A DNA stretch of 24,000 bases from Prosthecobacter sp. (GTDB lineage: Bacteria; Verrucomicrobiota; Verrucomicrobiia; Verrucomicrobiales; Verrucomicrobiaceae): contig NZ_JBGANL010000005.1 in the NCBI RefSeq assembly GCF_044222345.1, forward strand, positions 66,784 to 90,783. Reading direction: 5' to 3'. Within the stretch, counting starts at the first letter, position 1; the number at the start of each line of letters is the position of its first letter. The position numbers and the translations under genes were made by a program. Below, piece after piece: positions 2,826 through 9,475 of the stretch. The notes under the pieces were generated by a model. It ran no database searches and was not told where the DNA came from. It worked only from the letters and a program-made list of their open reading frames with translations.

Positions 2826-4178
2826 ATGAAAAATGGTTCATTCATTAACATGCTGGGTGCCTGCGTTTTCCCGCCGCTCGTCGGCGTGGGGATTTGCTGG
2901 GGTATCATGCAAATTTTGAAGAACCATGAAATGTTTCGTCTGGATGTGGTCACACTGCCCACTGCCACGGTCAGCAAGGTGCGTCAGGGCAAGCTGAGCG
3001 GGACCAGTGCTGAGATCCGTGCCTCGCTGCCTGTTGATGCTAGCTTCGACCCTGTGCGGTCACTGCCAGTGCCGCCGAACGCGGAAAAAACCGCGCTCAG
3101 ACGTGCGGCTGAGGCACCAAAGGTGAAACCGTTCATTGCTACGGAGCTGTCGCGCGGGGATGCCGGGGGGGGCACCGCCAGGAAGTCTGACAAGCCCTCT
3201 CCTGCCATCGCCTTTAAAACGCCTGCCTGGCGTCCGATCCTTGATCCGATCACGGATCACTGGACACGATTGATGCCGCGCACGGCTGCGCTGCCGCAGG
3301 CCTACCAAGCCGTGCTCAACGATGACGCTGCTCATCTGGCGAAGATCATTGCCATGGGAATTTCCCCCAACGAAATGACCCTGGGCGGGGATACGCCGCT
3401 GTGCGCCGCCGTGCGCATGGGACGTGCGGATTGTGTGAATGTGCTGGCGCTCTCGGGTGTGAACCTGAACCAGCCTGCGCATGAAAAGCAGCCACCGATA
3501 GCGATAGCCTCCCTGCGCCGGAATACGCCCGTGCTGCAGGCGCTGCTGGATTTTGGCGTTGATCCCAACACGCGCTTCAACACTCCCATTCACAAGCAGG
3601 TCATTGACCGCTGCACGATCAAAGATCTTCGAAACGCCATGGAAAGCGATCGCGGAATCACTCCGATGATCTGCTGTGCTGCGCGTGGCGATGTGGAAGG
3701 CGCGGTCACTTTGATGCGCGCAGGAGGCCGGCCAGGAATGGGGACCACGCGTTATCATCGTTATCCCATTAACTTTGCCGCCACGCAGGGGTATCTATTT
3801 CTGATGCGCGTCCTGCTGGGTCGGGATCCGGAGTCGGAGCCGGACACGCTGGTGACCGTCGATCTCTCGAGTCAACGTGCCTGGGTGACCAAGCAGGGGC
3901 GCATTATCAACCACACCATGGTTTCCACCGGACGTGAAGGCTATGGCACACCGGCAGGGCGCTATGTCATCACCGACAAGCACACCTCCCATGTCTCCAC
4001 GCTCTACCATGTGGCCATGCCGTGGTTCATGCGCTTGAATTGCGGGGCGATCGGCCTGCACAGCGGATATGTCACGGGTCAGCCCGCGTCACACGGCTGC
4101 ATTCGTCTGCCCTATGAGAAGGCGAAGCAATTTTTCAGTCAGGTCCGCGTGGGGGACGAGGTGGAGATTGTTTATTGA
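2826..4178 (+). CDS. membrane-anchored ankyrin-repeat L,D-transpeptidase (YkuD domain)
   Basis: N-terminal TM segment 'CVFPPLVGVGICWGIMQIL' followed by an Ala/Pro-rich linker. Ankyrin-like repeats include 'GDTPLCAAVRMGRADCVNVLALSGVNLNQ' and 'ITPMICCAARGDVEGAVTLMRAGG'. The C-terminal YkuD catalytic motif is 'GLHSGYVTGQPASHGCIRL'. Confidence 0.8.
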   Translation: MKNGSFINMLGACVFPPLVGVGICWGIMQILKNHEMFRLDVVTLPTATVSKVRQGKLSGTSAEIRASLPVDASFDPVRSLPVPPNAEKTALRRAAEAPKVKPFIATELSRGDAGGGTARKSDKPSPAIAFKTPAWRPILDPITDHWTRLMPRTAALPQAYQAVLNDDAAHLAKIIAMGISPNEMTLGGDTPLCAAVRMGRADCVNVLALSGVNLNQPAHEKQPPIAIASLRRNTPVLQALLDFGVDPNTRFNTPIHKQVIDRCTIKDLRNAMESDRGITPMICCAARGDVEGAVTLMRAGGRPGMGTTRYHRYPINFAATQGYLFLMRVLLGRDPESEPDTLVTVDLSSQRAWVTKQGRIINHTMVSTGREGYGTPAGRYVITDKHTSHVSTLYHVAMPWFMRLNCGAIGLHSGYVTGQPASHGCIRLPYEKAKQFFSQVRVGDEVEIVY

Positions 4179-4201: not shown

Positions 4202-5584
4202 CTACAGTGTCTTCAGCAGCTTGTCGTGGATGCCGTCGAAGCCGCCGTTGCTGAAGACCACGATGACATCGCCCGTGTGAGTTTCCTGTTTCAGACGATT
4301 TACGATGGCGTCGGTGTCTGCTTCAAACCAGCAGGGCTTGCCGCGTGCCGTGACTGACTGCGCCACCTTGGCGGTGTCCAGGCGTTGATCTGCCGCGACT
4401 TTCTCCGGATTGGCCACGGCCGCGATGACGGAGCCATCGGCCTCGGTCAGTGCCTCGATCAATTCATTCTGCAGCACGTTGCGGCGGCTTGTGTTTGAGC
4501 GCGGTTCAAAAAGCGCCCACAGGCGGCGGCCGTTATAGCGCTGGCGAAGGCCGCGCAGCGTCTCGCGAATGGCAGTCGGGTGATGACCGAAGTCATCGAT
4601 GATCGTGATGCCGTGGGCGGTGCCACGCTCTTGCTGACGACGGCGGATGCCGCGGAAACTGGCCAGGCCGGCGCGGATTTCATCATCACTCAAGCCGGCA
4701 AACCGGGCCGCACACACACACATGGCCGCGTTGCGCGCATTGAATTCGCCGACCATCGGCACTTCGAACGCAACGCCGTTGATTTCGAACTGCGTGGTCT
4801 CAGGTGTCACGCCGGTGATCGTGATGCGGAAATCGCAGTCTGGTCCCAGGCCCACGGTCTTGAGCGGGGCCGGGCATTTCGCACGCAGAGAGAGGCAGTT
4901 GGGATCGTCGCCGTTGATCAGGACAAGGCCGTTGCGAGGAACCGTGTTGAGGAAGCGCTGAAAGGAGAGCAGGATTTCATCGAGGTCACGGAAGATGTCC
5001 GCGTGATCGAACTCGATGTTGTTCACGATGGCGCACTCGGGCAGGTAGTGGAGGAACTTGCTGCGCTTGTCGAAGTAGGCGGTGTCGTACTCGTCGCCTT
5101 CGATCACAAACAGGTCCGAGTGGGTGAAGCGTGCGCCGGATTCGAAATTCTCAGGCACGCCGCCAATCATGAAGCCGGGGTTTTTGCCGGCGTGCTCATA
5201 GATCCACGCCAGCATCGTGGTCGTGGTTGTTTTGCCGTGCGTGCCGCTCACCACAAAGCTGCGTTTGCCCTGGATGACTTCGCGCTTCAACATCTCCGCC
5301 ATGGAGACGTAGGGCAGCTTTTTCTCCAGCAGGGCTTCGAGTTCGGGATTGCCGCGTGAGATCGCGTTGCCCACGACATACACATCCGCCTGCTGCGGCA
5401 GGTTCTCCGGATTGTAGCCTTCGGTCACGGTGATGCCTGCATCACGCAGCACATCGCTCATGGGCGGATAGACTGAATTGTCGGAGCCGCTGATGGTGTG
5501 ACCGAGGGCGCGCAGCGCGACTGCGGTGGAGCCCATTGCCGTGCCGCAGATGCCGATGAAATGAATGTGCTTGGGAGATGCCAT
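4202..5584 (-). CDS. mpl: UDP-N-acetylmuramate:L-alanyl-gamma-D-glutamyl-meso-diaminopimelate ligase (murein peptide ligase)
   Basis: The N-terminus 'IHFIGICGTAMGSTAVALRALGHTISGSDNSVYPPMSDVL' closely parallels E. coli Mpl. It has the Mur-ligase P-loop 'GTHGKTTTTTM', and 460 aa is typical for Mpl. Confidence 0.85.
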   Translation of the reverse strand: MASPKHIHFIGICGTAMGSTAVALRALGHTISGSDNSVYPPMSDVLRDAGITVTEGYNPENLPQQADVYVVGNAISRGNPELEALLEKKLPYVSMAEMLKREVIQGKRSFVVSGTHGKTTTTTMLAWIYEHAGKNPGFMIGGVPENFESGARFTHSDLFVIEGDEYDTAYFDKRSKFLHYLPECAIVNNIEFDHADIFRDLDEILLSFQRFLNTVPRNGLVLINGDDPNCLSLRAKCPAPLKTVGLGPDCDFRITITGVTPETTQFEINGVAFEVPMVGEFNARNAAMCVCAARFAGLSDDEIRAGLASFRGIRRRQQERGTAHGITIIDDFGHHPTAIRETLRGLRQRYNGRRLWALFEPRSNTSRRNVLQNELIEALTEADGSVIAAVANPEKVAADQRLDTAKVAQSVTARGKPCWFEADTDAIVNRLKQETHTGDVIVVFSNGGFDGIHDKLLKTL

Positions 5585-5769
5585 GGAAAGAGGGGCGCAC
5601 GGTTCAAGCCCAGGCGCAGACGTGAACTAAAGCAGGGCTTTTTGCCCCCTGCTAAAAGAATTTCACTTGGGCGGGAATAATCGCAGCAGCGGGGGCTCAC
5701 ACGATGCGACGGCTCGAACCCACGCAGCCGGCAGAACTAACAAACCAACTAACGCACTCCACACCTACC

Positions 5770-6027
5770 ATGAGCACCAAGCACATCATCGCCGCCGCCG
5801 CCTTCACCGGTCTCCTCTCCGGCGCCTACGCCGCCCAGACCACCAGCACCCAGAAGGCCGCCAGCCTCGGCGTCTCCATCGAAAAGATGGCTGACAAAGG
5901 CCAGCACGCCTGCAAGGGACACAATGCCTGCAAGGGACAGGGCGGCTGCAAGTCCGGCGACAACGGCTGCAAAGGCAAGAACTCCTGCAAAGGCAAAGGC
6001 GGCTGCAACACCATGCCGAAGAAGTAA
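5770..6027 (+). CDS. Sec-signal Cys-repeat precursor peptide (bufferin/HvfA-like RiPP metallophore precursor candidate)
   Basis: 86 aa. Signal peptide 'MSTKHIIAAAAFTGLLSGAYA|AQ' with an AxA-type site. The C-terminal core 'ACKGHNACKGQGGCKSGDNGCKGKNSCKGKGGCNT' has six Cys in two duplicated 3-Cys modules. It lies immediately upstream of DUF692/DUF2063/DoxX genes. An in-frame ATG at 5704 is an alternative start that would add 22 aa before the signal peptide. Confidence 0.7.
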   Translation: MSTKHIIAAAAFTGLLSGAYAAQTTSTQKAASLGVSIEKMADKGQHACKGHNACKGQGGCKSGDNGCKGKNSCKGKGGCNTMPKK

Positions 6028-6040
6028 GCCAAATCGATTT

Positions 6041-6084
6041 CCGCAGCCACACGACACCTCCCGCGTGTGGCTGCGGTTGTCTTT
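6041..6084 (+). terminator. intrinsic-terminator-like hairpin (candidate attenuator) between precursor gene and DUF692 gene
   Basis: 'ccgcagccacacg' (6041-6053) pairs perfectly with 'cgtgtggctgcgg' (6064-6076). That gives a 13-bp GC-rich stem and a 10-nt loop, followed by the T-rich 'ttgtcttt' (6077-6084). It starts 14 nt after the precursor stop codon. Confidence 0.5.
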
Positions 6085-6108
6085 AACCCAGGCCTTCCCA
6101 ACCCAGCA

Positions 6109-6951
6109 ATGCCCGCCAACCCTCACAACGGTCACACCGATCTCGGCATCGGTCTTGGCCTCCGAGTGCCGCACTACCGGCACATTCTGGAGAAAAAGCC
6201 CGTCTGTGACTGGTTTGAGATCATCTCCGAAAATTTCATGGTCGATGGCGGCCGACCGCTGGAGGTGCTGGACAGTATTCTGGAGCAGTATCGCGTCGTG
6301 CAGCACGGCGTCGCTATGTACTTTGGCAATGCCGATCCTCTGAACCGCGATCACCTCAAAAAACTCAAGCGTCTGGTGAAGCGCACCAACACGCCCTGGC
6401 TCTCCGATCACCTCTGCTGGGGCAGCGTGGGTGGCCGGTGCTCGCATGATCTCCTGCCCATGCCTTACACGACGAGCGTGGCCAGACACACGGCTGAGAA
6501 GATCAGGCAGGCGCGCGATTTTCTCGAAGTGCCCATCTGTGTCGAAAATGTGAGCAGCTATGCCGAATTCACCCAGAACGAGATGACCGAATGGGAGTTC
6601 CTCAACGAAGTCGTCGAGCAAGCCGATTGCGGCATCCTCCTGGATGTAAACAATATCTACGTTTCCTCTCAAAATCACGGCTTCGATCCCTTCGAGTATC
6701 TTCGTGCAGTGCCGCATCATCGTGTGGGCCAGATTCACATCGCGGGTCACACACGGTATGAAAACGTCATCCTTGACACGCACGATCATCCCGTGCCCGA
6801 TCCCGTGTGGGATCTCTACGCCGAGGCGATCAAACTTTCCGGCAGCACCGCCACGCTGCTCGAATGGGACGACAAAATCCCCAGCTTCGAAGACGTTCAC
6901 GCCGAAGCGCTCAAAGCCAGCCGCTATCTCCATGAGCACGCGCACGCCTAG
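6109..6951 (+). CDS. DUF692 family multinuclear non-heme iron enzyme (MbnB/BufB/HvfB-like)
   Basis: Family-typical motifs run along the whole length: 'LGIGLGLR', 'DWFEIISENFM', 'VQHGVAMYFG', 'WLSDHLCW', 'HDLLPMPYT', 'VENVSSY', 'GILLDVNNIYVSSQNHGFDP', 'GQIHIAGH', 'ILDTHDHPVPDPVW' and 'TLLEWDD'. I chose the start at ATG 6109, downstream of the hairpin. The track ORF begins at GTG 6067, inside the hairpin. Confidence 0.9.
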   Translation: MPANPHNGHTDLGIGLGLRVPHYRHILEKKPVCDWFEIISENFMVDGGRPLEVLDSILEQYRVVQHGVAMYFGNADPLNRDHLKKLKRLVKRTNTPWLSDHLCWGSVGGRCSHDLLPMPYTTSVARHTAEKIRQARDFLEVPICVENVSSYAEFTQNEMTEWEFLNEVVEQADCGILLDVNNIYVSSQNHGFDPFEYLRAVPHHRVGQIHIAGHTRYENVILDTHDHPVPDPVWDLYAEAIKLSGSTATLLEWDDKIPSFEDVHAEALKASRYLHEHAHA

Positions 6952-7804
6952 CCAGATCCGCACCAATGCAGACCTGCGCCACCTGCAGCGCACGATGGCT
7001 GCCGCACTCATGCAGCCGCTTTCGCGTCAGGATGGCATGAATGCCAGAACGCAGGTCGATTTCATCACGCCAAACGATCGCATGAGCGGTTTCGATCGGC
7101 TCGAAATCTACGCCCGCCAGTATTGGTTCCGTCTGCTCGACTGCCTCTACGATGATTATCCTGCACTGCGCGTTTTTCTGGGCGAGCGTCGCTTTCACCA
7201 GCTGTGCCGCGACTACCTCGCGCAGCATCCCAGCAATTCCTGGACTCTGCGAAATCTTGGATCCGCCCTCCCCTCTTTTATTACGGATCTCAAGGCGCGT
7301 GATATTACCCGAGTTGAATGGGCGCAGACGCTTGCCTTTGACGAGGTGTTGAAAAAGCCGCTGCGGATCGATGATCTGCTTGGCACTGACCCCTCCACGC
7401 TTCGTCTGGGAATTCAGCCCTGCGTCGTGCTTCTAGAGATCGACCATGCGGTCGATCACTTCATCACCGCGATGAACAAGGCCGACGCCGATGTACGTGG
7501 TTCAGCCAGCCAGGCCATGTCCGAGGCGCCCACCCGTGACAGCATTGCCAAAGCACCGAAATTGAAACGTGAGCGTGTGCATCTGGTTGTCCATCGCCAC
7601 GACAACATGCTGTACTTCAAGCGCCTCTCCCTGGAGTCTTTCGCCATGCTAGCCGCACTGCGGGATGGCCTCACGCTGGCAGATGCCGTCGAACTCGCAC
7701 TTGCCCAAGCTGCTCCGGACACTGACTGGCCAGCACAAATCCGCGAATGGTTTACCGAGTTCTCTCAGCTCGGGTGGTTCGTCAAATCTCCCCAAAAATC
7801 ATGA
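6932..7804 (+). CDS. DUF2063 family protein (MbnC/BufC/HvfC-like partner of DUF692)
   Basis: N-terminal 'LRHLQRTMAAALMQP...FDRLEIYARQYWFRLLDCLYDDYPALRVFLGERRFHQLCRDYLAQHPSNSWTLRNLG' fits DUF2063 as I remember the family. ATG 6932 overlaps the DUF692 gene by 20 nt. This is the conserved position after DUF692. Confidence 0.8.
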   Translation: MSTRTPSQIRTNADLRHLQRTMAAALMQPLSRQDGMNARTQVDFITPNDRMSGFDRLEIYARQYWFRLLDCLYDDYPALRVFLGERRFHQLCRDYLAQHPSNSWTLRNLGSALPSFITDLKARDITRVEWAQTLAFDEVLKKPLRIDDLLGTDPSTLRLGIQPCVVLLEIDHAVDHFITAMNKADADVRGSASQAMSEAPTRDSIAKAPKLKRERVHLVVHRHDNMLYFKRLSLESFAMLAALRDGLTLADAVELALAQAAPDTDWPAQIREWFTEFSQLGWFVKSPQKS

Positions 7805-8259
7805 AACCTTGGACCCTGGCCAACACTCTCCTTGATCGCACCGCAGGTTATCTGGCAGATCCTTTTCTGCTCGGCATCCGCCTCTACTGGGGCTGGCAGT
7901 TTTTCCAGACTGGCAAAGGCAAGCTCAGTGACATCAGCGTACCCACCGCCTTCTTCACGGAGCTCGGCATTCCCTTTCCACAGCTCAATGCCTGCATGGC
8001 TGGTTGCACCGAGTGCCTTGGTGGGCTGCTGCTTCTGGTTGGCCTCTTTTCCCGAGTCACCTGCGTGCCCCTCATCTTTACCATGCTCGTCGCCTACAGC
8101 ACGGCGCACCTCGATGTGGTGAAGACGATCTGGGCGGATGCCGACTCCTTCGTCAGCGCGCCGCCGTTTCTTTTCCTGTTCGCTGCCGTGACGGTCTTCA
8201 TCTTTGGCCCAGGCAAGTTCTCGGTCGATGAACTGCTGCGCAGGTGGAAGGCCAGATGA
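7801..8259 (+). CDS. DoxX family membrane protein
   Basis: 152 aa with four hydrophobic helices. 'LGIRLYWGWQFFQTGKGKL' and 'LGIPFPQLNACMAGCTECLGGLLLLVGLFSRV' are DoxX-like. The start ATG overlaps the DUF2063 stop (ATGA at 7801-7804). Confidence 0.8.
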   Translation: MKPWTLANTLLDRTAGYLADPFLLGIRLYWGWQFFQTGKGKLSDISVPTAFFTELGIPFPQLNACMAGCTECLGGLLLLVGLFSRVTCVPLIFTMLVAYSTAHLDVVKTIWADADSFVSAPPFLFLFAAVTVFIFGPGKFSVDELLRRWKAR

Positions 8260-8266
8260 ATGCATC

Positions 8267-8620
8267 TCAAGGCATTCCCGCCTCCTGCTTCAATGCTTCA
8301 CGGATATGCTGGAGTGCTTCGGGGGAAAGAGCGGAAAGGATGTCTGTGTTTTCTTCGTGGCAGGCTGTGCAACGCAGAATGACGCGGAGGTTCTCGAGCT
8401 GCCTCGGCAATGGGCGGCAGACATGGCAGAGCAACGAGTGCAGGTGAAATCGCAGGTTTTCAGTCAAGCTGAGCGGGCGGTCGAGACGCAGAGATGTGAG
8501 CACGGCGAACTGACGGCAGGAGAGGCCAAGTAGCTTCATCATAGGCCACATCATGGCTTGCATGATCCGGTAGATCAGGCCCGGCGCGGGTGGTGCGTGT
8601 GAGTGTGCGGAAGTTTTCAT
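8267..8620 (-). CDS. cytoplasmic zinc-binding (ZAS-type, zf-HC2) anti-sigma factor
   Basis: C35-x25-H61-x3-C65-x2-C68 ('HSLLCHVC') matches the ZAS ligand pattern. A second 'CTACH' cluster lies near the C-terminus, and there is no convincing TM helix. ATGA overlap with the upstream sigma gene (8617-8620). Internal Met starts (e.g. 8542) are possible. Confidence 0.65.
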   Translation of the reverse strand: MKTSAHSHAPPAPGLIYRIMQAMMWPMMKLLGLSCRQFAVLTSLRLDRPLSLTENLRFHLHSLLCHVCRPLPRQLENLRVILRCTACHEENTDILSALSPEALQHIREALKQEAGMP

Positions 8621-9174
8621 GGGGTGATGCCGTGATATTGCAGACAGGCGCGAAGTTGGTGTCTGGCACGGGTGAGGAGCACGGCAGCGCTGCCAGGGGT
8701 GACTCCGGCGGCGGCGGCGGCTTCACCGACGGGGAGATTGTCCACTTCTCGCAGGGTGAAAAGCAGACGCAGGCGCTCGGGCAGGCGCTCGATGCAATTA
8801 CGCACCCAGTCGAGGACTTCGGAGCGTTGCGCTGTCTCGCCGGGAGATTCATTGAGCAGTTCGACGCCGTAGTTGGGATCAATACGCCAGGAACCGCGCG
8901 AATCGAACAATGTATCAAGCGGGTCGGTTCCCCAGTCGTTCTTTTCGTCTCGCCCAACGGATTGCGCGGTAGGGGTGCGTCTGGCACTGCGGAAGTGGTC
9001 GAGGATTTTGAACTTCATGATGCCGGTGAGCCAGGTGGAAAGGGTGGAACGACCATCGAAGTCATCGCGCTTTCGCCATGCGATGATGAGAGTGTCCTGC
9101 ACGAGGTCCTCTGCGTGCTGGTGGTCCTGGAGCCGCTGATAGGCATGATGGTAGAGTCGTGGTGCTTCGCTCAT
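8617..9174 (-). CDS. ECF-family RNA polymerase sigma factor
   Basis: Sigma-70 region 2 is 'HAEDLVQDTLIIAWRKRDDFDGRSTLSTWLTGIMKFKILDHFR'. The region 4 HTH is 'LRLLFTLREVDNLPVGEAAAAAGVTPGSAAVLLTRARHQL'. I set the start at Met22 of the track ORF (MSEAPRLYHH). Starts at 9201 or 9237 are not excluded. Confidence 0.85.
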   Translation of the reverse strand: MSEAPRLYHHAYQRLQDHQHAEDLVQDTLIIAWRKRDDFDGRSTLSTWLTGIMKFKILDHFRSARRTPTAQSVGRDEKNDWGTDPLDTLFDSRGSWRIDPNYGVELLNESPGETAQRSEVLDWVRNCIERLPERLRLLFTLREVDNLPVGEAAAAAGVTPGSAAVLLTRARHQLRACLQYHGITP

Positions 9175-9475
9175 CAGGATGTCGGCGGTAATTAGACACA
9201 TGCGGTTGAACATGGCGAAACAAAACACGCCCGCCACTGCGATGACAGGCGTATCCCGGAATAAACAGAAGGTGAGTGCCGGGTCTGCGCGCTGTAGTTG
9301 TACGAATGGCAGGTGGACTTGCCGTTGGGGAGTGTAAGCGCGAGCAGCGCTGCGATACGGAGAAGGCGGGCCGGGATGTGGATGTGCTTCATGTCTGGGT
9401 GCTTGTCGTTTTTGTCACCGCTTCGACAAGTGCGTGATTTGGAGGGCAAGTGTTGGTCGTTCGAAGCCGCGGGGT

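Follow-up and report, generated by a model that had tools for sequence, protein, structure and literature searches.

A probable Buf2-type bufferin operon in a Prosthecobacter-like Verrucomicrobium, with a precursor built from two three-cysteine modules

Introduction

The BufA2 precursor of Caulobacter vibrioides carries a Sec signal peptide and six cysteines, and the buf operons of this organism are induced by copper and protect against it (Leprevost et al., PMC11626156). Modification in Caulobacter requires BufB and BufC, which also suffice for it, and DoxX is dispensable for both modification and function. The four central cysteines of Buf2 are shifted by -4.03 Da, reported as 5-thiooxazoles, and Cys I and Cys VI are unmodified and probably form one disulfide. 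The same study showed experimentally that Caulobacter bufferins are cleaved at the predicted site, and suggested that part of the core peptide takes part in precursor recognition (PMC11626156).

A family survey found six cysteines in 90% of the precursors and twelve in the rest, which it described as "duplicated 6-Cys-containing domains", and it reported no sub-repeat (PMC12452194). Gadgil et al. (PMC13097082) assigned 1,172 and 358 BGCs to Cys-Lys precursors, with NACKG and HNDCK as common motifs. In Cys-Lys MNIOs an Asp replaces FonB-Phe250 of the Lys-Cys enzymes, beside the catalytic Asp, and this residue has been proposed to contact the substrate Lys (PMC13097082). Six-Cys ORFs ahead of DUF692/DUF2063 genes were noted in an earlier metagenomic study (PMC8692599).

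Here we describe a short ORF in a 24,000-nt stretch of Prosthecobacter DNA (the window). We are confident, short of certainty, that it is the bufA gene of a Buf2-type bufferin, or "Cys-Lys captophorin", at the head of a bufA-bufB-bufC-doxX operon in a Prosthecobacter-like Verrucomicrobium. The system is already known from the published Buf2 (BUF_6/12Cys) bufferins and Cys-Lys captophorins (PMC11626156, PMC12452194, PMC13097082), and the precursor is an uncharacterised addition to that family and no new class of biology. What the analysis offers is a predicted function, that of a periplasmic copper-buffering RiPP, for genes of Prosthecobacter, other Verrucomicrobiota and Acidobacteriota that public records call "hypothetical" or "low-complexity protein". 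It also makes a modest addition to the description of the family, in which the duplication unit appears to be a 19-residue 3-Cys module and not just the 6-Cys domain.

Results and discussion

Gene model and operon

The ORF translates to MSTKHIIAAAAFTGLLSGAYAAQTTSTQKAASLGVSIEKMADKGQHACKGHNACKGQGGCKSGDNGCKGKNSCKGKGGCNTMPKK, with the layout MSTKHIIAAAAFTGLLSGAYA/AQTTSTQKAASLGVSIEKMADKGQH-ACKGHNACKGQGGCKS-GDN-GCKGKNSCKGKGGCNT-MPKK (the slash marks the predicted signal peptide cleavage). Its six cysteines are residues 48, 54, 60, 67, 73 and 79, and are thereby spaced 5-5-6-5-5. The features of the locus are collected in Table 1.

Table 1. Features of the bufA locus, with positions in the window.
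Feature	Position	Strand	Basis or remark
Promoter-like motif GGAATAA-N14-GCTC (candidate)	5674..5698	+	Conserved upstream of bufA; function inferred
bufA, 85-aa Buf2-type (Cys-Lys) bufferin precursor (probable)	5770..6027, stop codon included	+	Profile match, homologues, conserved ATG
Sec-type signal peptide, aa 1-21	5770..5832	+	Inspection, -3/-1 Ala rule; predicted cleavage AYA/AQ
Linker of ~25 aa from signal peptide to Cys core, ends K-G-x-H	5833..5907	+	
Module 1 (A-type) ACKGHNACKGQGGCKS with GDN connector, Cys I-III	5908..5964	+	Shuffle test and family alignment
Module 2 (B-type) GCKGKNSCKGKGGCNT, Cys IV-VI	5965..6012	+	Shuffle test and family alignment
Stem-loop, 13-bp main stem CCGCAGCCACACG...CGTGTGGCTGCGG then TTGTCTTT	6041..6084	+	Between bufA and bufB
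bufB, MNIO (DUF692) bufferin maturase	6109..6951	+	NF050167 344.9 bits (cut-off 310); PF05114 E 7e-106
bufC, DUF2063 partner (PME1 type)	6932..7804	+	PF09836 64 bits (cut-off 27.2); weak HvfC match
doxX (bufD/HvfX-type) membrane protein	7801..8259	+	PF07681 E 1e-18; NF050144 HvfX 81.3 bits (cut-off 80)

The start codon could have been the ATG at 5770 or the one at 5704, a choice that the first, sequence-only reading of this DNA had posed, and conservation in relatives decides for 5770. The ATG at 5770 and the codons that follow it are kept in all relatives, including a locus (L004) with unrelated DNA upstream. Close relatives have CTG or TTG in place of the ATG at 5704, and 1-nt indels break the frame between the two positions. 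Because the upstream ATG is not conserved, the indels interrupt its frame, and L004 diverges fully upstream of 5770, we rejected 5704 as a start.

In the operon, the first 20 nt of bufC lie within bufB and the start of doxX overlaps the bufC stop (ATGA), and these overlaps indicate translational coupling. The BufB segment LLEWDDKIP corresponds in alignment to LLERDFNFP in the Lys-Cys-type MNIO of PDB 3BWW, and 68 of 72 related loci have the EWDD motif. From this alignment we infer that the EWDD site corresponds to FonB 249/250, in which case BufB would carry the Cys-Lys signature.

Family assignment

The precursor matches the BufA2 model NF050166 with an E-value of 7.9e-9 and 35.6 bits, below the cut-off of 60, and the Pfam model DUF7640 with 18.5 bits (cut-off 28.1), so by curated thresholds it is peripheral. 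All 41 diverse homologues match NF050166, and of ten scored individually seven pass 60 bits, mostly two-domain forms. The 60-bit cut-off is an annotation rule and not a biological criterion. Since the enzyme side of the operon passes its equivalog cut-off, we read NF050166 as under-sensitive and not as a sign of a different family. In practice both curated models, NF050166 and DUF7640, under-call the clade studied here.

Buf2 precursors are recognised by six (or twelve) conserved core cysteines with multiple Cys-Lys motifs, an N-terminal Sec (or lipoprotein) signal peptide, and a gene beside a BufB-type MNIO and a DUF2063/PME1 partner. We found the cysteines and motifs in the core, a Sec signal peptide by inspection, and both enzyme genes downstream with the scores given in Table 1. 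BufA2 and our precursor share a Sec signal peptide, a core with six cysteines and Cys-Lys dyads, a BufB-type MNIO and DUF2063 operon, and an MNIO with an Asp after the catalytic Asp. The common 5-mers also occur verbatim in this clade, NACKG in the precursor itself and HNDCK in a relative with 98% identity. There are differences as well. Cys I to Cys VI span 26 residues in Caulobacter BufA2 (core positions 24 and 50) and 31 here, the operon here contains doxX while Caulobacter buf2 does not, and the host here is a Verrucomicrobium. The Buf2 literature distinguishes 6 from 12 cysteines, whereas we also see the 3-Cys module and variants with 9, 15 and 24 cysteines.

We compared the locus with three other groups. 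Buf1 (DUF2282, BufA1) has the same MNIO and DUF2063 pair with DoxX, a Sec signal peptide, thiooxazole chemistry and periplasmic copper buffering, but its precursors have four cysteines and a non-repetitive small-protein fold, while this one has six cysteines and gave no match to DUF2282 (PF10048) at E <= 0.01.

The Lys-Cys captophorins (EGKCG, oxazolin, fontiphorin and bulbicupramide, HvfA) resemble the precursor in being repeat-built and Cys-rich, with a signal peptide and thiooxazole copper ligands. They also have a closely related MNIO, PME1 and DoxX, and the DoxX here passes the HvfX cut-off. However, their motif has the reverse polarity (E-G-K-C-G, against x-C-K-G here), their repeats are 17 residues with 2 Cys instead of 19 residues with 3 Cys, and their MNIOs have a Phe where BufB here has an Asp. 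The EGKCG motif is absent from our precursor, and BufB reaches 249.7 bits with the HvfB model, which has a cut-off of 360. Substrates with NACKG or HNDCK are not processed by FonBC (PMC13097082).

Methanobactins (MbnA/MbnB/MbnC) are likewise Cys-derived, heterocycle-based copper-binding RiPPs modified by an MNIO, but their precursors are short leader-core peptides that lack a Sec signal, their chemistry is of the oxazolone-thioamide type, and MbnC stands in place of DUF2063. The precursor here does have a Sec signal peptide, and BufB scores 42.6 bits against the TIGR04159 (MbnB) cut-off of 325.

Relatives and synteny

We found 3,958 homologues of the precursor in a 90%-clustered database, and a profile search gave 1,860 clusters at 50% identity; both modules are kept in more than 1,800 protein clusters. 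The closest, with up to 98% identity, are from Prosthecobacter and other Verrucomicrobiaceae, and NCBI records name them "hypothetical protein". A genome scan gave 80 loci. Most of them belong to Verrucomicrobiota, Acidobacteriota and Planctomycetota, Polyangiaceae and Eremiobacteraceae contribute one each, and the top-scoring locus is that of Prosthecobacter fluviatilis. A tblastn search of plasmids with the precursor gave no match, for which the low-complexity filter may be responsible.

Gene order could be counted in 72 loci that had enough downstream sequence. The bufB gene is immediately downstream in 69 of these, the DUF2063 gene is present in 69, and doxX lies downstream in 61. The order A-B-C is found in 68/72 and A-B-C-doxX in 60/72. 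This agrees with an expectation of the sequence-only reading, which was that similar Cys-repeat peptides would lie next to DUF692 genes elsewhere: in 69/72 loci they are directly upstream of the DUF692/MNIO gene. For a few homologues (L016, L053 and L071), no MNIO gene was found within the flanks examined.

Signal peptide and linker

By inspection, the signal peptide has a basic n-region (MSTKH), a hydrophobic h-region (IIAAAAFTGLLSG) and a c-region ending in AYA. The N-terminal region is conserved family-wide, and 274 of 344 members have the motif A[AV]xxG[LIMFV][LIMFVY]xG. With BufB directly downstream, this supports the earlier claim of a signal-peptide-bearing RiPP precursor that adjoins a DUF692 enzyme. 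The linker that follows had been put at ~30 aa, which is too long (Table 1 gives the measured length). Within it, G34 is invariant in the family alignment, and a His stands at position -2 of Cys I in 317/344 members.

Two modules in the core

Without its connector, module 1 covers aa 47-62 (nt 5908-5955), and module 2 covers aa 66-81. The two modules have 16 residues each and are identical at 10 of the 16, with a period of 19 aa. Low-complexity sequences can match themselves by chance, so we compared this with 20,000 composition-preserving shuffles of the 36-aa core. In the shuffles, non-overlapping 16-mers matched each other at best in 4.1 positions on average, and a value of 10 was reached in a fraction of 5e-5. 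With p ~5e-5 the duplication exceeds what low complexity gives by chance, and the proposal that the core is a duplicated 3-Cys module, together with its Cys spacing, is borne out.

The DNA tells us something about the age of the duplication. The two copies are identical at 35/48 nucleotides overall and at only 8/16 third codon positions, with differences such as AAG versus AAA for Lys and GGA versus GGC for Gly. Because so few third positions agree, we conclude that the duplication is old and has been held by selection on the protein, and that it is not a recent copy of the DNA. At the module level the DNA repeat is 5899-5951 versus 5956-6008, with 74% identity. There is also a lower-level repeat, the hexapeptide x-C-K-G-x-x, in six copies (TRF period 18). 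The DNA strings that had been cited as evidence for the module duplication belong to this lower level: "gcctgcaagggaca" occurs at 5908 and 5926, and "ggctgcaaaggcaa"/"tcctgcaaaggcaa" at 5965 and 5983, in each case 18 nt apart within one module. They are not evidence for the duplication of the module itself.

Across 252 homologues with two modules, ten corresponding positions (C, K, G, N, C, K, G, G, G, C) hardly vary in either module. The x positions behave differently in the two copies, being variable in module 1 (mean column entropy 0.67 bits) and fixed as G, K, S, K in module 2 (0.27 bits). Most probably a 19-residue 3-Cys module, itself resembling three x-C-K-G-x-x hexads, was duplicated in tandem to form the core, and the copies have since specialised, module 1 becoming variable and module 2 nearly invariant.

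The sequence-only reading had noted that every Cys is preceded by a small residue and followed by Lys or Asn. This is true of the precursor here, where the preceding residue is Ala, Gly or Ser and five of the six cysteines are followed by Lys. It had gone on to propose a uniform context suited to one iterative enzyme, and this claim is supported. In the family as a whole, at least 92% of members have Lys after each of Cys I-V; after Cys VI the residue is Ala, Asn or Ser, and the Lys is lacking family-wide.

Module number across the family

We counted C-x5-C-x5-C modules in 261 proteins. Two modules are found in 187 of these, three in 9, four in 59, five in 2 and six in 1, and the 3 proteins with a single module look truncated. 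The commonest core Cys counts are 6 (176 proteins) and 12 (60), and we also found 9 (5 proteins), 15 (2) and 24 (1). Whether Cys counts come in multiples of three had been suggested as a check, and they do in 244/261 homologues. The main exception is an 8-Cys class in which the third module is truncated.

In three-module proteins (e.g. P0049 and P0176) the modules are joined by the module-1-type connector K-S-[GS]-D-N, whereas the 12-Cys proteins repeat the entire "K-H-x-[module A][module B]" unit. The different connectors indicate that duplication took place at both the 3-Cys and the 6-Cys level. The published description of "6 or 12 Cys" can therefore be refined to a 3-Cys repeat unit with natural 3-, 5- and 6-module variants. 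Such variants of module number are natural test cases for the number of cysteines modified by the MNIO and the number of copper ions bound by each module.

We can extend this, tentatively, to function. The 3-Cys module may be the functional as well as the evolutionary unit of Buf2, with one thiooxazole-based copper site each, so that capacity would scale with the number of modules (2-6); the near-invariant module 2 (GCKGKNSCKGKGGC) would then be an enzyme-docking or nucleating site. We regard this as a possible reading, with the odds somewhat against it.

Proposed pathway and alternatives

By analogy with Caulobacter, we expect the following pathway. The precursor would be transcribed, possibly from the GGAATAA-N14-GCTC element, and the 85-aa product made in excess over the enzymes, helped by a hairpin past the bufA stop. 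In the cytoplasm BufB and BufC, using O2, would turn the Cys of x-C-K-G into 5-thiooxazoles, with a loss of 4 Da each, as in Caulobacter Buf2 and the work on FonB. The same two sources suggest that the Asp of EWDD recognises the Lys of the substrate. The four central cysteines are the likeliest targets, and Cys I and Cys VI would be left as a disulfide, although on this point the analogy with Caulobacter is uncertain. Sec export and a signal peptidase cut after AYA would follow, to judge from the sequence and the Caulobacter data, and the mature peptide of ~64 aa would chelate excess periplasmic copper.

We considered whether the ORF is a gene at all, and whether its product is modified. Long chance ORFs are numerous in GC-rich DNA, and we saw no obvious Shine-Dalgarno sequence upstream of bufA, so a spurious, low-complexity and untranslated ORF had to be weighed, with the real gene perhaps on the opposite strand as an antisense ORF of 420 aa at 5749-7011. 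We rejected the antisense ORF as spurious since it overlaps bufB, which has its PF05114 match on the + strand. Verrucomicrobiota, Acidobacteriota, Planctomycetota and Proteobacteria all conserve the protein sequence of the precursor, with synonymous divergence of the DNA, and by this conservation a spurious bufA ORF is effectively refuted. The product might instead be an unmodified secreted protein, metallothionein-like and metal-binding or disulfide-rich, with a Cys/Lys/Gly-rich composition and unrelated DUF692 neighbours. This would suit the three loci in which no MNIO gene was seen, and also the sizeable fractions of stand-alone precursor genes in published surveys (PMC12452194). But the order precursor-MNIO-DUF2063 holds in 68/72 loci across phyla, the gene overlaps indicate translational coupling, the enzyme signature is matched to a Cys-Lys substrate, and among 864 fully assembled genomes with Buf_6-12Cys precursor genes there was none without an MNIO gene (PMC12452194, Table 3). 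We consider an unmodified protein very improbable.

A closer competitor keeps the operon and the chemistry and differs in which cysteines are modified: all six, or the five Cys-Lys sites, would become thiooxazoles, and there would be no structural disulfide. Fontiphorin, from the sister Lys-Cys family, bears seven thiooxazoles on a repeat peptide (PMC13097082), and the Lys after five of the six cysteines of our precursor, kept at the family-wide frequency given above, points the same way. So does a core that is almost without hydrophobic residues. AlphaFold2, run with a 22-sequence alignment, gave a mean pLDDT of 50.4, every residue being below 70, hence no confident fold or disulfide geometry; its model has a helix at residues 4-16, within the signal peptide. 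Against this, Caulobacter Buf2 is the only one characterised, and there Cys I and Cys VI escape modification (PMC11626156), so uniform modification of all six is not the default expectation. The Caulobacter pattern of four thiooxazoles and a Cys I-VI disulfide also fits the missing Lys after Cys VI, but the different Cys I-VI spans (26 versus 31) make a residue-by-residue transfer from Caulobacter BufA2 uncertain. On balance we find modification of every Cys, or of all five Cys-Lys sites, rather unlikely, and prefer a Buf2 bufferin with its four central cysteines modified. The sequence-only reading had argued against a folded disulfide protein. That argument is right for the four central cysteines if they are modified as in Caulobacter Buf2, where on the other hand Cys I and Cys VI probably form one disulfide (PMC11626156).

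Noncoding elements around bufA

The promoter-like motif is invariant in L004, despite an otherwise divergent upstream region, and 8 further Verrucomicrobiota loci have it at the corresponding place ahead of bufA. In the window it has one match, against 0.03 expected. An ECF sigma/anti-sigma pair, considered as a regulator of the operon, adjoins it on the - strand (8267-9237). In the three closest relatives the operon has no such pair beside it, and a scan of the window did not find the motif repeated ahead of the sigma gene. A T-arm-like string near 5600 had suggested a tRNA or tmRNA, which we rejected since ARAGORN found none in the window.

The stem-loop between bufA and bufB has a folding energy of -33.4 kcal/mol (z = -5.2) and is terminator-like by a consensus scan. 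It is likely a partial terminator or mRNA stabiliser that would keep the precursor above the level of the enzymes. For the 90 nt past the bufA stop, 84 loci give a median z of -2.6, with 64% of them below -2, compared with 3.6% in a control region. The sequences of these elements differ between loci, which points to a conserved structure and not a conserved sequence past the bufA stop.

Conserved signal peptide and linker

The signal peptide of bufA, the 85-aa precursor gene, is unusually highly conserved. Residues A10, A11, G14 and G18 are invariant in the family alignment of 22 precursor sequences, which come from several phyla, and the signal-peptide motif was present in 274 of the 344 family members. 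A His at position -2 relative to Cys I was found in 317 of the 344. Conservation of this kind, in the signal peptide and at the His, points tentatively to a second role of the signal peptide and linker in recognition, or to a metal-ligand role of the His.

Noncoding elements flanking bufA

We found a strong stem-loop 3' of the precursor gene. In the 90 nt past the bufA stop, the median folding z across 84 loci was -2.6, compared with a control value near 0, and across phyla it is the structure that is conserved rather than the sequence.

On the other side of the gene there is a GGAATAA-N14-GCTC motif, about 70–100 nt 5' of the bufA start, which was kept even in loci where the remaining upstream DNA diverged. 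All of its matches are in Verrucomicrobiota loci; besides the copies in the table, there is one each in L006, L012, L019 and L029. The motif is a possible promoter for an alternative (ECF-type) sigma factor. The divergent intergenic stretch between a Mur-ligase-family gene and bufA also holds a small GC hairpin, AGGGCTTTTTGCCCC. The Mur-ligase-family gene adjoins a gene that encodes ankyrin repeats and a YkuD L,D-transpeptidase domain in one protein, and the latter gene has no relation to the bufferin finding.

Features of the window and of related precursor loci
Feature	Location	Position (nt)	Strand	Conservation
Ankyrin/YkuD gene	window	2826-4178	+	
Mur-ligase-family gene	window	4202-5584	-	
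GC hairpin	window	5634-5648		kept in close relatives
GGAATAA-N14-GCTC	window	5674-5698	+	
GGAATAA-N14-GCTC	L001	5903-5927		
GGAATAA-N14-GCTC	L002	5905-5929		
GGAATAA-N14-GCTC	L003	2059-2083		
GGAATAA-N14-GCTC	L004	5910-5934		
bufA signal peptide	window	5770-5832	+	
Stem-loop	window	6041-6084	+	
ECF sigma/anti-sigma pair, overlapping genes	window	8267-8620 and 8617-9237	both -	
Two precursor genes	L030	5992; 6504		
Two precursor genes	L040	3776; 5145		
Two precursor genes	L069	6058; 6972	+; -	

ECF sigma genes

In the window, an ECF sigma/anti-sigma pair is convergent with doxX; the 117-aa ORF of the pair has an H-x3-C-x2-C (HSLLCHVC) zinc anti-sigma motif. The three closest relatives lack this pair next to their operon. 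Sigma genes have been described as going with Buf1 and not Buf2 clusters (PMC12452194); however, 20 Acidobacteriota loci in our set do have ECF sigma genes within about 1.5 kb of the operon.

Gene copies and module number

Three loci (L030, L040 and L069) have two precursor genes per operon, in tandem or divergent. In L003, two precursor copies with the same sequence are separated by 4.4 kb; this could reflect either duplication of the operon or an artefact of the assembly.

The number of 3-Cys modules extends past the published 6 or 12 Cys. We found proteins with three modules (P0049, P0176), five (P0124, P0185) and six (P0248, which has 24 Cys and CC doublets), as well as a recurrent 8-Cys class (P0065, P0066 and others) in which the third module is truncated.
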